A DNA stretch of 64,000 nucleotides from a bacterium (GTDB lineage Bacteria; Patescibacteriota; Patescibacteriia; JAHIZJ01): positions 12,601-76,600 of the forward strand of contig JAUYLJ010000027.1 in NCBI GenBank assembly GCA_030699685.1, in the 5' to 3' direction. The notes beneath the pieces were generated by a model. It was not told the DNA's origin and ran no database searches. It saw nothing but the letters and a program-made list of their open reading frames with translations. The first letter of the stretch is position 1; each line of letters begins with the position of its first letter. Positions 12,241 through 54,739 of the stretch are shown here, piece by piece. A program made the translations under genes and the position numbers.

Positions 12241-12312
12241 GCGGGTGTCGTATAATGGTTATTATGGCTCCCTTCCAAGGAGCAGAAGCCGGTTCGATTC
12301 CGGTCACCCGCT
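12241..12312 (+). tRNA. tRNA-Gly(TCC)
   Basis: hand-folded cloverleaf: acceptor GCGGGTG/CACCCGC, anticodon loop CTTCCAA, T-loop TTCGATT. Confidence 0.8.
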
Positions 12313-43803: not shown

Positions 43804-43889
43804 GCCGGGGTGGTGGAATGGTAGACACAAGGGACTTAAAATCCCTCGACCACAAGGTCGTGCGAGTTCGAATCTCGCCCCCGGCACCA
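43804..43889 (+). tRNA. tRNA-Leu(TAA), intact, with CCA
   Basis: acceptor GCCGGGG/CCCCGGC, anticodon loop CTTAAAA, long variable arm, T-loop TTCGAAT. Confidence 0.85.
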
Positions 43890-51314: not shown

Positions 51315-52598
51315 TTACTTCTCGCTCCGGTCAGCCAAGAATTCAAAAACTTTGCGATTCAAAAGGATCTCCTCAAGACGGTCGCGATATTCCGGCGCAT
51401 CGACTTTGTTATACGTTTCCAGATCGTCTTTATACTGTTCTTTCTGTTTTTCCAGTTCGGAATCAATATCGTCCGAACTGACGATGAGATGTTCTTTGAG
51501 CCGGATCGCCCTAAGCACCAGCGCGCTCTTGATGCGCTTTGAGGCCTGATCGCGGAAATCTTTTTTCACTTCGTCTTCGCTCTTCTTCAACTGTTCCAGA
51601 TACTTCTCCCATTCCATGCCCTGTCGCTGGATGTTACCGCGCAGTTCATCAATCATGCGATTGAGCTCTGAATCGACCAGTACGTCGGGGATTTCTCCAA
51701 ACCTTGACGATTCAACAATTTCGTTCAACATTTCAAGTTCGAAGCGCTGATTTTCTCTTTCGCGCGCTTCCAGCTCAAGATTGTCTGCAATCCGTTTCTC
51801 CAAATCCTGCCTGGTTTTGAACGAACCCAGAGACTGGAGAAAGTCTCCGTCGACGGGAGGTAATTCAATCTGAAACACTGAGTTGCATTTTACCGCGCAG
51901 TCAACTTTTTTGCCGGCTAGATTCTTGCGAAAATAATTCTTGGGATACGTTAGCGGAAACTTTTTTTCTTCGCCCGTTTTCAGGCCAACAAGCTGGTCTT
52001 CGAGTCCTGGGACAAAATTGCCTTCACCGAGTACCATCGGGTGATTCTTCGTAATTCCGTCATCAACGGGAACATTGTCGAGAGAGATTTTCACGTCTAC
52101 CTCAACTTTATCGCCTTTTTGTGCCGGACGGTCCACTCGGGACTCCTTAGCCCGCATTTTCTGCAGCTGCAAAATAGTGTTGGAGATTTCTGATTCGTCG
52201 ATCTTGATTTCCTTGCGCTTGGCTTTGAGTGTGGAATAGTCTCCCAAAGTAATTTCAGGAAGTAAGGAGACCGTCGCGGTATAGATAAAAGGATTGCCCG
52301 GCGCCACTTTTGCCAAGTCAATTTGCGGTCGGCCGATCGCTTCCAGTTTCTGTTCCAATACCGCCTTGGGATAGGTTTCGCTTACGATATCCTCAGCCGC
52401 CTCCTGATAGAGCGCGGGTTCGCCAATACGTTGAACTACCACCGCGTAGGGAGCTTTCCCTTGGCGAAACCCCGGGATATTCATCCCTTCCGACAGGCGC
52501 GCGGCGGTTTTTTGCAAATATGGCTGCAATTCTTCAACCGGTATTTCTATCGTCAGCTTGACCATGGAGTTTGATTGCTTCTCTACGTTGACATTCAT
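51315..52598 (-). CDS. tig: trigger factor
   Basis: N-terminal MNVNVEKQSNSMVKLTIEIP ribosome-binding domain pattern; 427 aa. Confidence 0.8.
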   Translation of the reverse strand: MNVNVEKQSNSMVKLTIEIPVEELQPYLQKTAARLSEGMNIPGFRQGKAPYAVVVQRIGEPALYQEAAEDIVSETYPKAVLEQKLEAIGRPQIDLAKVAPGNPFIYTATVSLLPEITLGDYSTLKAKRKEIKIDESEISNTILQLQKMRAKESRVDRPAQKGDKVEVDVKISLDNVPVDDGITKNHPMVLGEGNFVPGLEDQLVGLKTGEEKKFPLTYPKNYFRKNLAGKKVDCAVKCNSVFQIELPPVDGDFLQSLGSFKTRQDLEKRIADNLELEARERENQRFELEMLNEIVESSRFGEIPDVLVDSELNRMIDELRGNIQRQGMEWEKYLEQLKKSEDEVKKDFRDQASKRIKSALVLRAIRLKEHLIVSSDDIDSELEKQKEQYKDDLETYNKVDAPEYRDRLEEILLNRKVFEFLADRSEK

Positions 52599-52709
52599 GA
52601 TTTTTCCAATACAAAATTTGACTTCTTAACAAGATCACGCTAAGCTTATCCCATCATTCACAATCTGGCAAGTTATACAGAGCGAATCATGCCACGGCAT
52701 GATTTGACC

Positions 52710-52872
52710 GGATTCTCAATGAGTCCGGAGGCACGAGGGATCTGGCCCTATGACTGCCCGGCAACCTGTTCTGACCTCAAGTCGGGATAAGGTGCTTCAT
52801 CCAGCCCGAATGATTCGGGGAAGATGACGATGCTTGACGCAAACGGCTTTCCTCGATGAGGAAGGTTTTTTG
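52710..52872 (+). ncRNA. SAM-I (S-box) riboswitch with terminator expression platform
   Basis: GAGGGATCTGGCCCTATGACTGCCCGGCAACC...AAGGTGCTTCATCCAGC...GAAGATGA matches SAM-I core (GAGGGACUGGCCCGAUGAAACCCGGCAACC...GGUGCCAAUUCCUGCAG); then TTCCTC-GAT-GAGGAA hairpin plus TTTTTT just before the RBS. Confidence 0.6.
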
Positions 52873-52890
52873 GTTCATTGGGAGGAAACT

Positions 52891-53085
52891 ATGAATGCCG
52901 TAGACTACGACTTTGATTGCGCAGTCAAACCCTGTGAGCAGAAGCTGCGCCACGATGATCCCAAGTGGCAGCCGAATGTCTGCGTCGGCCGAGGACACTG
53001 CCCGTGGTTCTCCTGCTGCAATTTGCAGCACAAGAACCCGCCATTACAACCCACGAGGCCGAAACGCGGCCGCATGTGTGTCTGA
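52891..53085 (+). CDS. 64-aa Cys-rich small protein (8 Cys), hypothetical
   Basis: RBS GGGAGGAAACT before ATG; followed by terminator. Confidence 0.45.
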   Translation: MNAVDYDFDCAVKPCEQKLRHDDPKWQPNVCVGRGHCPWFSCCNLQHKNPPLQPTRPKRGRMCV

Positions 53086-53100
53086 AGAAGGCCTATGAGC

Positions 53101-53130
53101 TAAGGAAGCGGTAACGCTTCCTTTTTGTTT
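53101..53130 (+). terminator. intrinsic terminator GGAAGCG-GTAA-CGCTTCC plus TTTTTGTTTT
   Basis: seen directly. Confidence 0.6.
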
Positions 53131-54119
53131 TACTGTTTGCTTTGAACCAGGCTTCGAACATCCGCGGTCTCATGATCATACTCATCCTCTATTTCCTGAC
53201 GCAGGATTTCTTCGATGATGTCTTCCAGAGTGACGATGCCAAGCAGTACGTTTTTTTCATTATAGACAAAAGCCTGATGCATCCGTTCCTTAACCAGCCG
53301 ATTGAGCAGTTGATCGAGTTTTTGTGCCGGGTCAATTTTGAAAATTTTCTTTTGCTGAAACACCTCGGCTAATTTTGTCCCAGGAGCAAGGCCGATAAGC
53401 TGTTTCGTATAGAGTATACCGACGATGACATCGAGGGTAAGGGCATAGACTGGTATTCTGGTAAAACCGTTTTGTTGTATCATCGTAAAAATTTTTGTAT
53501 CCAAAACTGTCTTAAGCTCAAGAGCAAAAACCTTTTCTCTTGGCGTCATCACCTGTCCAGCCTGAGCTTCGGAAAAATTCAGCGCCCCTTTGATAATTCG
53601 TTCCTCATCTTCGTCCAACGGGCTCCCAGGATGATCTTCGTGAAAGGCAACAATCTGCTCCAGTTCCTGCTTTGACCACACTATCGGAAGTTCCTCCCCA
53701 AGCGTTATGTCTAGCAGCTTGGCCATGGGCCATACTATCGGGAAAAATATAAATTGAAAAACTTTTACCACCCACACAGTCTTCGCACCGACCGTCAAAG
53801 CGTATCGTGAAATTGCCGCCATTGGTATGACCTCGCCGAAGACGACGATCAGACCGGTGGAAATCAAACTAGCCACCACCCCTGTCGCGATGGAACCAAG
53901 AAAGACTGCCAGCACGGAATTCACGGCTACGTTTCCTAGCAACAAGGTCGTCAGCAAGAGGCTGCCGTTTCTTCTCACTTGGTAGATTTTTATCGCTCGT
54001 TGGTCTCCCAAAGCGATTTTGCGTTCGAGCTCCGTCTTGCTCAAACTCAGCAGACCAAGAGTAAGACCCGAAAACAGCCCGGAGAGCAACACCAGCCCGA
54101 GAACAATAGCGATAGTCAT
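53130..54119 (-). CDS. CorC/HlyC-family transporter (DUF21-CBS-CorC domains)
   Basis: N-terminal 4-TM DUF21 region, tandem CBS, C-terminal transporter-associated domain. Confidence 0.7.
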   Translation of the reverse strand: MTIAIVLGLVLLSGLFSGLTLGLLSLSKTELERKIALGDQRAIKIYQVRRNGSLLLTTLLLGNVAVNSVLAVFLGSIATGVVASLISTGLIVVFGEVIPMAAISRYALTVGAKTVWVVKVFQFIFFPIVWPMAKLLDITLGEELPIVWSKQELEQIVAFHEDHPGSPLDEDEERIIKGALNFSEAQAGQVMTPREKVFALELKTVLDTKIFTMIQQNGFTRIPVYALTLDVIVGILYTKQLIGLAPGTKLAEVFQQKKIFKIDPAQKLDQLLNRLVKERMHQAFVYNEKNVLLGIVTLEDIIEEILRQEIEDEYDHETADVRSLVQSKQ

Positions 54120-54121
54120 GG

Positions 54122-54739
54122 TTATTCGGGAGGATACAATGAAGGCAAAGCGCCCTTAGTCAATCTGGCATACTGGCCATCGCTGGCGCGCGCAATAAAC
54201 AATTCGCCTCGATCTTCCACTAATAAATAGCGGCTGTCAGGCAACCAATATATCCTCTCTGGCCGATAAAACCACAAATACGGCCACACCAGTCCGTCTA
54301 TCAACGTGGAGTTTGTCTCCTCCTCAGTAATATGGAACTCGCGCTGTCCCATCCAGTCCCGAGAAACCGTGACGTTCATTTCTCCGTCCGGCGATAGGCC
54401 GCTTCCGACATACTCATCCATGGATCGCAATACCCCGGACATGTTCTGGCTTTGCTGATGAGCCCACTCACTCGTCGGCATGGACTGAATTTCTTCCAAA
54501 CCCGTACCGTCCGTATAGATGCCGGAAATAATCACCTCATTTCCGTTTTCTGATGAAACAAAAAACACTTTGAACGGACTGTTTTTCCAATCAAAAGCGT
54601 CAATACTGGCGGTCGTCAGATCATACTGACTGGCCCAAAACAACCCAACGCCTAACAAGACGACAGCCAGCGCCAGAATAAAAACGAAAATAAAAAGCAC
54701 CGGATGCTGGCGACGGCGGTAATGAAACGCTTCAATCAT
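54122..54739 (-). CDS. hypothetical membrane-anchored protein
   Basis: N-terminal TM; 205 aa. Confidence 0.4.
   Translation of the reverse strand: MIEAFHYRRRQHPVLFIFVFILALAVVLLGVGLFWASQYDLTTASIDAFDWKNSPFKVFFVSSENGNEVIISGIYTDGTGLEEIQSMPTSEWAHQQSQNMSGVLRSMDEYVGSGLSPDGEMNVTVSRDWMGQREFHITEEETNSTLIDGLVWPYLWFYRPERIYWLPDSRYLLVEDRGELFIARASDGQYARLTKGALPSLYPPE

Follow-up and report, generated by a model that had tools for sequence, protein, structure and literature searches.

We describe an aptamer of the SAM-I (S-box, RF00162) class, a sensor of S-adenosylmethionine (SAM), that precedes a single gene for a 64-amino-acid, cysteine-rich protein in a 64,000-nucleotide stretch of a patescibacterial contig (JAUYLJ010000027.1 of assembly GCA_030699685.1, positions 12,601 to 76,600 of the forward strand; hereafter the window). 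The parts follow one another in the order SAM-I-class aptamer, terminator, strong ribosome-binding site (RBS), conserved small gene and second terminator (Table 1). Few riboswitch classes have been studied as thoroughly as SAM-I, whose regulon is regarded as confined to methionine and SAM synthesis and transport. The sole SAM-I cargo in the window belongs to a protein family without a description in any database, mostly overlooked by gene callers. Gene neighbourhood assigns this family to SAM metabolism, and we consider this pairing of an established riboswitch class and a cargo family not previously described to be real and, in part, new. Two independent genomic ties to SAM, a riboswitch in two lineages and adjacency to the SAM synthetase gene metK in four, provide a concrete lead to a SAM-homeostasis component as yet missing from our picture of the Patescibacteria, which to our knowledge cannot make methionine and must manage SAM tightly. 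More generally, the case illustrates how a riboswitch can place a 'dark' small protein in a pathway, and it should be of interest both to riboswitch biologists and to those who study the candidate phyla radiation (CPR).

The covariance-model match to RF00162 runs over the full length of the model (positions 1-108 of 108), with a score of 41.8 bits and an E-value of 3.8e-8 for the 581-nucleotide stretch searched. The P1 strands lie at 52713-20 and 52823-30, P2a is formed by 52730-33 with 52755-58 and P2b by 52737-39 with 52746-48, P3 occupies 52760-52796, and P4 pairs 52805-10 with 52814-19. A pseudoknot joins CUGG in L2 (52742-45) to CCAG in J3/4 (52801-04). We compared this aptamer with five others, from loci L022, L006 (two aptamers), L008 and L011. 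Automated alignment and folding of the six (MAFFT/RNAalifold) missed P1 and P2a through local misalignment, and those helices were checked by hand. P2a pairs in all six (GGCA/UGCC, AGGU/ACCU, AGCG/CGCU, GUGAC/GUCAC, GUGGCAC/GUGCCAC and GUGGCG/CGCCAC), P2b carries a compensatory change from GGG/CCC to GGU/ACC in L008, and upper P3 and P4 covary, their sequence being different in every one of the six and their pairing kept. The pocket and pseudoknot strings CUGG, GCAACC, AGGUGC and CCAGCCC are invariant, occurring once each and in this order in 6/6 aptamers, and a regular expression for the SAM-I core had no match outside aptamer sites in the 443 kb made up by the window plus the fetched loci. 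Judged by this architecture, the RNA is SAM-I with a damaged P1. An annotation made earlier from the letters of the window (hereafter the sequence-only reading) had called the SAM-I core almost verbatim, which is correct for P2, P3, P4 and the pseudoknot strings but not for P1 or J1/2, whose defects are weighed below.

The open reading frame (ORF) behind the aptamer encodes exactly the peptide that the sequence-only reading had quoted, downstream of the strong GGGAGG RBS that it had named. Among the syntenic loci of five relatives fetched for comparison, L008 (GCA_016294925.1) and L011 (GCA_028714495.1) carry uncalled ORFs of 64 codons at the same site. The window protein is 55% identical to the L008 product (tblastn E-value 4e-22) and 50% identical to the L011 product (3e-18), about the level of conservation of trigger factor (55-57%). 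Between the window and L008, identity at the three codon positions is 0.66/0.72/0.39 (third-position identity is 0.39-0.42 overall), and for 22 of the 35 identical residues the two genes use different codons. The frame is the only one open in all three orthologues (window, L008 and L011). Given this protein-level conservation with near-random third codon positions in the only shared open frame, comparison of the sequences indicates that the small ORF is a real conserved protein-coding gene. Gene callers missed it in the Logan copy of the window contig (L005), in L008 (7488-7682, minus strand) and in L011 (7493-7687, minus strand).

Exhaustive searching of 1.84 billion representative proteins with phmmer returned nine true homologues of 56-75 amino acids (E-values of 3.6e-8 to 1.5e-4), and a profile search added two more for a total of 11, with profile matches down to an E-value of 2.7e-24. 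Four further members came from a motif-derived DNA scan of metagenomes, and 7 of 34 matches to a broader motif were true. An auto-generated motif gave 94 pattern matches in the metagenome scan, with none confirmed, and a pattern scan of viral contigs gave one match, by chance. A word-indexed search with the single peptide returned no match because gene callers skip the small ORF, and exact look-up of the peptide found no record. In reciprocal tblastn searches, the window protein matched all members with E-values of 1e-7 to 4e-13. The only named database record of the family is PIP17863.1, a 'hypothetical protein' from a Parcubacteria metagenome-assembled genome (MAG), and the family as a whole is largely invisible in protein databases. 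The homology search proposed by the sequence-only reading turned up both close orthologues, at 50-55% identity, and a wider family.

The window protein (7.5 kDa, pI 8.8, seven cysteines) has all of the residues that are invariant in the family alignment (A3), namely Y6, F8, K13, C15, C37, C43, P50, P54 and P57; P14, C31, W39, K48 and G60 are near-invariant. The spacing C37-x5-C43 does not vary, and conservation extends to the tail K-[ND]-P-P..P-T-x-P-K-x-G-R, so that members of 56-75 amino acids follow the pattern KPC ... C-x-W-[FY]-x2-C ... P-T-x-P-K-x-G-R. A Shine-Dalgarno (SD) sequence stands at the same distance in 10/12 family members, and the ORF is followed by its own terminator in L008, L011, L014, L017, L022, L025, L027 and L055. 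Metal or thiol binding, which the sequence-only reading had guessed, is plausible because three cysteines are invariant and one is near-invariant, and the protein is probably metal-binding. The conserved cysteines, at 15, 31, 37 and 43, are all single, with no CxxC in A3. We considered a zinc-ribbon or rubredoxin-like mini-protein and rejected it, as two CxxC (or CPxCG) knuckles are required and none is present, and Pfam, NCBIfam and PDB gave no match. Searches of Pfam, NCBIfam, PHROGs and PADLOC found no credible match among all 14 members searched, and a PDB profile search returned noise only (histone H1 at an E-value of 0.26). The idea that the gene is a remnant of a larger one, or a homologue of the 135-amino-acid cargo found in L006, was likewise discarded, with no similarity in any frame.

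To place the family in its genomic setting, we distinguished nine context types: two with a riboswitch, four with metK and three without a visible link to SAM. The first riboswitch lineage is the clade of the window, which has a terminator platform in the window itself and SAM-I-like aptamers upstream of the gene in L008 and L011, where the orthologous aptamers have a long P4 and are followed by an SD-sequestering hairpin. The second, L021/L022 (protein P0125), is distant and AT-rich; its protein is 44% identical to that of the window and uses a GTG start. In L022 a canonical 73-bit SAM-I aptamer comes first, then a terminator whose 5' arm is CU-rich, and after it an SD and the ORF with its own terminator. 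This is the same order of parts as in the window, from which L022 differs by its canonical aptamer and clear antiterminator. The claim of the sequence-only reading that a SAM-I switch has a tiny cysteine-rich protein, outside the known regulon, as its only cargo is therefore upheld, by a conserved gene and by recurrence of the unit behind a 73-bit aptamer.

In four other lineages, metK lies downstream of the small gene on the same strand, at distances of 48-267 nucleotides. In L014/15 metK follows after 48 nucleotides, with glutamate dehydrogenase upstream and a tRNA and a type IV secretion system (T4SS) gene downstream. The distance is 184 nucleotides in L017, with polA upstream; 267 in L027/37, between an unknown gene upstream and UPF0182 downstream; and 112 in L055, with MPG and a methyltransferase upstream and a beta-CASP RNase downstream. 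Across these lineages the small proteins are 38-54% identical and the MetK proteins 65-76%. Given that the outer neighbours all differ and that the small proteins have diverged, it is the pair of small gene and metK itself that has been retained. The metK of L014 (6247-7455, plus strand) and L015 (855-2024, plus strand) is an intact gene of 402 codons that is absent from the JGI gene lists, and the stretch had looked gene-free; its product is 65-69% identical to the other MetK proteins compared.

On balance, and with slightly more than even confidence, we read the window locus as a monocistronic SAM-controlled unit whose protein acts in SAM homeostasis, most likely as a metal-binding partner of MetK with three or four cysteine ligands. 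The role in SAM homeostasis is suggested by genomic association, namely the recurrent coupling of the gene to a SAM sensor or to metK; the adjacency to metK in four lineages is also why we favour the guess, made in the sequence-only reading, of a sulfur-metabolism accessory. If S-box leaders and L022 are taken as the model, abundant SAM would close the aptamer, the expression-platform terminator would form and transcription would stop before the RBS. When SAM is scarce, a G-rich strand of the aptamer (52814-23 or 52734-40) would capture the CU-rich 5' arm of the terminator, allowing read-through and synthesis of the small protein. We infer this polarity, termination at high SAM and read-through at low SAM, from the behaviour of the SAM-I family and of L022. 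The protein would then assist or regulate the SAM synthetase MetK as a partner required at low SAM, and the riboswitch would replace, or add to, the physical linkage to metK of the other lineages. A bolder form of this proposal, possible though doubtful, is that the protein is the founding member of a class of small, cysteine-coordinated MetK partners that raise, stabilise or gate SAM synthesis when genome-reduced Patescibacteria are starved of SAM. Members of such a class would owe their expression either to a SAM-I riboswitch or to coupling with metK on the chromosome, and the class would be a bacterial counterpart of the regulatory subunit of methionine adenosyltransferase (MAT).

The components needed for such a switch can be located in the leader. 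The terminator hairpin (52845-52867, -11.5 kcal/mol) is followed by six T residues at 52866-52871, and the T-run ends 8 nucleotides before the RBS. Its CU-rich 5' arm is complementary to UUCGGGGAAG at 52814-52823, which comprises the 3' strand of P4 and J4/1; the duplex of 52810-30 with 52843-58 has a predicted energy of -12.4 kcal/mol. An alternative partner of the same arm is CGAGGGA in P2 (52734-52740), which is the pairing in the minimum free energy (MFE) structure of the transcript ending at 52857. Folding predictions thus make 52814-52823 and 52734-52740 antiterminator candidates.

Several observations weigh against our reading, and those on the RNA side are the ones that would be expected of a relic or weakened switch, in which the gene is real but the aptamer has decayed in P1 and J1/2, the SAM response is lost, and the leader attenuates constitutively, or some other mechanism brings about read-through. 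The aptamer scores 2.6 bits below the Rfam gathering score of 44.4. A gathering-threshold Rfam scan of the window accordingly reported tRNAs only, the SAM-I aptamer being absent because its score lies below that cutoff. The RF00162 check proposed in the sequence-only reading therefore gave a full-length match but a sub-threshold score, just short of the level below which that reading had counted its own claim as refuted, and on this comparison we file the window RNA as a divergent SAM-I-class element rather than a certified member of RF00162. Among the related aptamers, those of L022 (73 bits) and L006a (59) are above the cutoff, and L006b (38.9), L008 (22.8) and L011 (22.6) are below it. P1 closes the SAM-I junction and forms half of the SAM pocket through its A6-U88 and U7-A87 pairs; in the window only 6/8 of its positions pair, two of them as G-U, with C.C and A.A mismatches, the latter at the canonical U7-A87 position. 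J1/2 contains a palindromic insertion of 6 nucleotides, UCCGGA. In nearest-neighbour folding, both P1 strands are sequestered, the 5' strand in the 8-bp hairpin H0 and the 3' strand in an extension of P4. All MFE predictions, whether for the leader or for partial transcripts, contain H0, which has no counterpart in the canonical L022 aptamer. As H0 contains the P1 5' strand and the GAG of J1/2, it competes with the ligand-binding fold, and the P1-closed junction lies ~20 kcal/mol above the MFE (-53.8 vs -73.4). The L022 aptamer, in contrast, folds into the four-way junction unaided, and the MFE structure of its leader is a textbook antiterminator. In the window, the terminator state is favoured by ~17 kcal/mol in all full-length folds, so that attenuation of this copy may be permanent, or its switching may call for conditions beyond the folding model.

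We nevertheless think a relic unlikely. The ligand-pocket strings, the pseudoknot, P2, P3 and P4 are all intact, the terminator arm is still complementary to two aptamer strands, and relatives keep riboswitches at the same locus; moreover, a riboswitch decides kinetically and with the help of tertiary structure, which lies outside nearest-neighbour MFE calculations. The SAM-responsiveness of the window's own aptamer is uncertain. On the protein side, what speaks for a partnership with MetK is gene neighbourhood, and what speaks for metal binding is the cysteine pattern. The small gene has its own terminator in the metK-linked loci, and the two genes are probably neighbours rather than parts of one transcript. 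Three context types lack a link to SAM, placing the gene beside a pyrroloquinoline quinone (PQQ)-like propeller (L016, L018-20), beside NUDIX (L052) or standing alone (L025), and in L006 the orthologous riboswitch precedes an unrelated ORF of 135 amino acids. An AlphaFold2 model built from a 10-sequence alignment was uninformative as to fold (pLDDT 49, pTM 0.23). The homology and structure searches called for by the sequence-only reading thus produced the new homologues, but no Pfam, NCBIfam or PDB match and no confident model. The main functional rival to a MetK partner is a nucleic-acid-binding regulator, a cysteine-coordinated mini-domain with a basic, proline-rich tail that would control metK or the SAM regulon and would not bind MetK. 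A regulator often adjoins its target, and in four lineages the small gene sits next to metK with its own promoter and terminator; the pI of 8.8, the conserved C-terminal K-N-P-P..P-T-x-P-K-x-G-R and the lack of a riboswitch on the metK genes of those four lineages also fit. We consider such a regulator distinctly unlikely, as Pfam and NCBIfam searches gave no match to a DNA- or RNA-binding family and the CxxC knuckles typical of zinc ribbons are missing, with a structure model that says nothing either way.

Two further explanations deal with the nature of the product. The sequence-only reading had suggested a precursor of the type of the ribosomally synthesized and post-translationally modified peptides (RiPPs); a RiPP precursor or secreted cysteine-rich peptide would be matured by a radical-SAM or other enzyme, for example in the manner of the SCIFF/ranthipeptide type, and a SAM riboswitch would couple its production to the supply of co-substrate. 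The protein is small, contains cysteine, tryptophan and lysine, and has invariant residues, and two members lie beside a PQQ-like beta-propeller, a context with a loose resemblance to quinoprotein amine dehydrogenases and their small cofactor-bearing subunits. We regard a peptide of this kind as very improbable: none of the nine context types has an adjacent maturase, the 64-kb window has no ORF of at least 120 amino acids with CX3CX2C, conservation in A3 is full-length with no leader/core split and no signal peptide, and an OFF switch would cut production exactly when the co-substrate SAM is abundant. That the ORF is spurious, and the riboswitch-terminator unit a small RNA or an insulator of its convergent and divergent neighbours, would agree with its having been skipped by gene callers in the Logan copy and two NCBI MAGs, and with the missing database record for the exact protein. 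This is hardly credible in view of the saturated third positions beneath a conserved protein, the single frame open in all orthologues, and a family with SDs that was found independently in several protein collections.

Compared with known systems, the window unit is conventional in its RNA and unusual in its cargo. The SAM-I regulon consists of methionine and SAM synthesis and transport genes only, metK included (PMC11477304). The window RNA resembles the SAM-I leaders of Bacillus and Clostridioides metK, metE and metNPQ in its four-way junction, pseudoknot and GCAACC/AGGUGC strings, and in a terminator whose 5' arm can pair with the 3' part of the aptamer. It differs from them in the 2.6-bit shortfall, the degraded P1, the 6-nucleotide J1/2 insertion and the competing 5' hairpin, and its 64-amino-acid cargo is neither a methionine/SAM enzyme nor a transporter. 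SAM riboswitches of the Listeria SreA/SreB type reportedly act as terminated small RNAs and, like the window unit, combine SAM-I and a terminator with no enzyme gene behind. Unlike SreA/SreB, the window terminator is followed by a conserved, translatable ORF with an SD, and a protein cargo therefore explains the unit. In mammals, MAT2B is a non-catalytic regulatory subunit of the SAM synthetase MAT2A; it is a conceptual analogue of the MetK-tuning role proposed here, although unrelated in size and sequence, and we know of no bacterial MetK subunit of the MAT2B kind. Among riboswitches with a tiny cargo that lacks any conserved domain, the nearest precedent is provided by the 58-amino-acid proteins of unknown function behind c-di-GMP-I riboswitches in C. 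difficile (PMC11477304), which differ in ligand, in protein and in having no linkage to metK. A literature search turned up no paper on SAM riboswitches in connection with Patescibacteria or with a small cysteine-rich protein, and none describing the family.

The related loci also provide a set of natural SAM-I variants on one cargo, with an eroded P1, a long P4, a tandem arrangement, and terminator versus SD-sequestering platforms. L006 (GCA_964594455.1; 7601-7900, minus strand) has two SAM-I aptamers in tandem; a terminator-like hairpin comes after the first (59 bits) and an SD-sequestering hairpin after the second (38.9 bits). Its 135-amino-acid ORF (7557-7153) has no match in Pfam, NCBIfam or PDB. 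Downstream of this cargo, L006 shares the terminator GGGAAGTCAnnTGnCTTCCC and its T-run with L008 and L011, and it looks as if the cargo has been swapped inside a conserved riboswitch/terminator cassette. The aptamers at L006 7601-7721, L008 7722-7882 and L011 7725-7883 (all minus strand) have a G-C pair in P1 at the canonical A6-U88 site, one of the SAM-I pairs that face the sulfonium. P4 is much longer in these G-C variants, Rfam gives them 22-39 bits, and their ligand affinity or discrimination between SAM and S-adenosylhomocysteine (SAH) might differ. In the loci with a propeller (L016, L018-20), the order is NurA, small gene, PQQ-like beta-propeller. The members there, P0132 and P0123 (L016 841-2347; L018 2632-3254; L020 112-1358), have no SD and lie between the divergent NurA and the propeller gene, which starts ~50 nucleotides 3' of them; they may represent a different use or lineage of the family.

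Table 1. Features of the riboswitch unit and its flanking genes, in window coordinates
Feature	Position	Strand	Remarks
tig (trigger factor) gene	51315-52598	minus	divergent from the riboswitch unit
candidate sigma-70-like promoter (TTGACA, 18 nt, CAAAAT)	52588-52617	+	overlaps the 5' end of the divergent tig
leader hairpin AAUCAUGC-CACG-GCAUGAUU	52685-52704	+	upstream of the aptamer; perfect 8 bp; present in the leader MFE fold
hairpin H0 CCGGAUUC-UCAAU-GAGUCCGG	52708-52728	+	contains the P1 5' strand and J1/2 GAG
SAM-I (S-box, RF00162) class aptamer	52713-52830	+	covariance-model match
expression-platform intrinsic terminator GGCUUUCCUC-GAU-GAGGAAGGUU + T-run	52845-52871	+	terminator scan
Shine-Dalgarno GGGAGG	52880-52885	+	five nt 5' of the ATG at 52891
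small Cys-rich protein gene, 64 aa	52891-53085	+	ORF, conserved family
second intrinsic terminator AAGGAAGC-GGUAAC-GCUUCCUU, then UUUGUUUU	53102-53133	+	ends the monocistronic transcript
CNNM/CBS gene	53130-54119	minus	convergent; next gene after the small ORF

At the level of the locus, the sequence-only reading was accurate in placing a terminator directly after the aptamer, a second one after the ORF and the next gene on the opposite strand; the distance it gave from the first terminator to the RBS, 10 nucleotides, is too long by two. The second terminator has a hairpin at 53102-53123 followed by a T-rich tail (-15.8 kcal/mol). The tail (53124-53133) covers the stop codon of the CNNM/CBS gene (53130-53132), and with no T-run after the hairpin on the minus strand, the terminator looks unidirectional. 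The same reading had described the region as richer in GC than its flanks, a difference that proved trivial: GC content is 0.538 against a window mean of 0.497 (standard deviation 0.037), and a GC content of 0.538 or more occurs in 11.6% of stretches of that size. The candidate promoter has 10/12 consensus matches, in a scan that gave 2 sites in the region against 0.9 expected and for organisms whose promoter rules are not established, and it may tentatively be taken as the promoter of the riboswitch transcript. The leader hairpin at 52685-52704 sits in the divergent promoter region between tig and the riboswitch.

The neighbours of the small gene in the window are tig, FPGS, CNNM and an AMP-binding enzyme; neither metK nor a second copy of the family was found in the 64 kb. 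Homologues of the trigger factor are all from Patescibacteria or Parcubacteria, with an identity of at most 57%, and a contig scan of the genomes with trigger factor found relatives at 32-39% identity only, with no useful synteny. Between the CNNM and AMP-binding genes, an ORF of 205 amino acids (54122-54739, minus strand) has no match in Pfam or NCBIfam; its position is conserved in L006 and L008, where it is a gene of 200 amino acids. The window also contains nine tRNA genes, including those at 12241-12312 (plus strand) and 43804-43886 (plus strand); the remaining 7/9 are on the minus strand, in three small clusters between 19678 and 31398.

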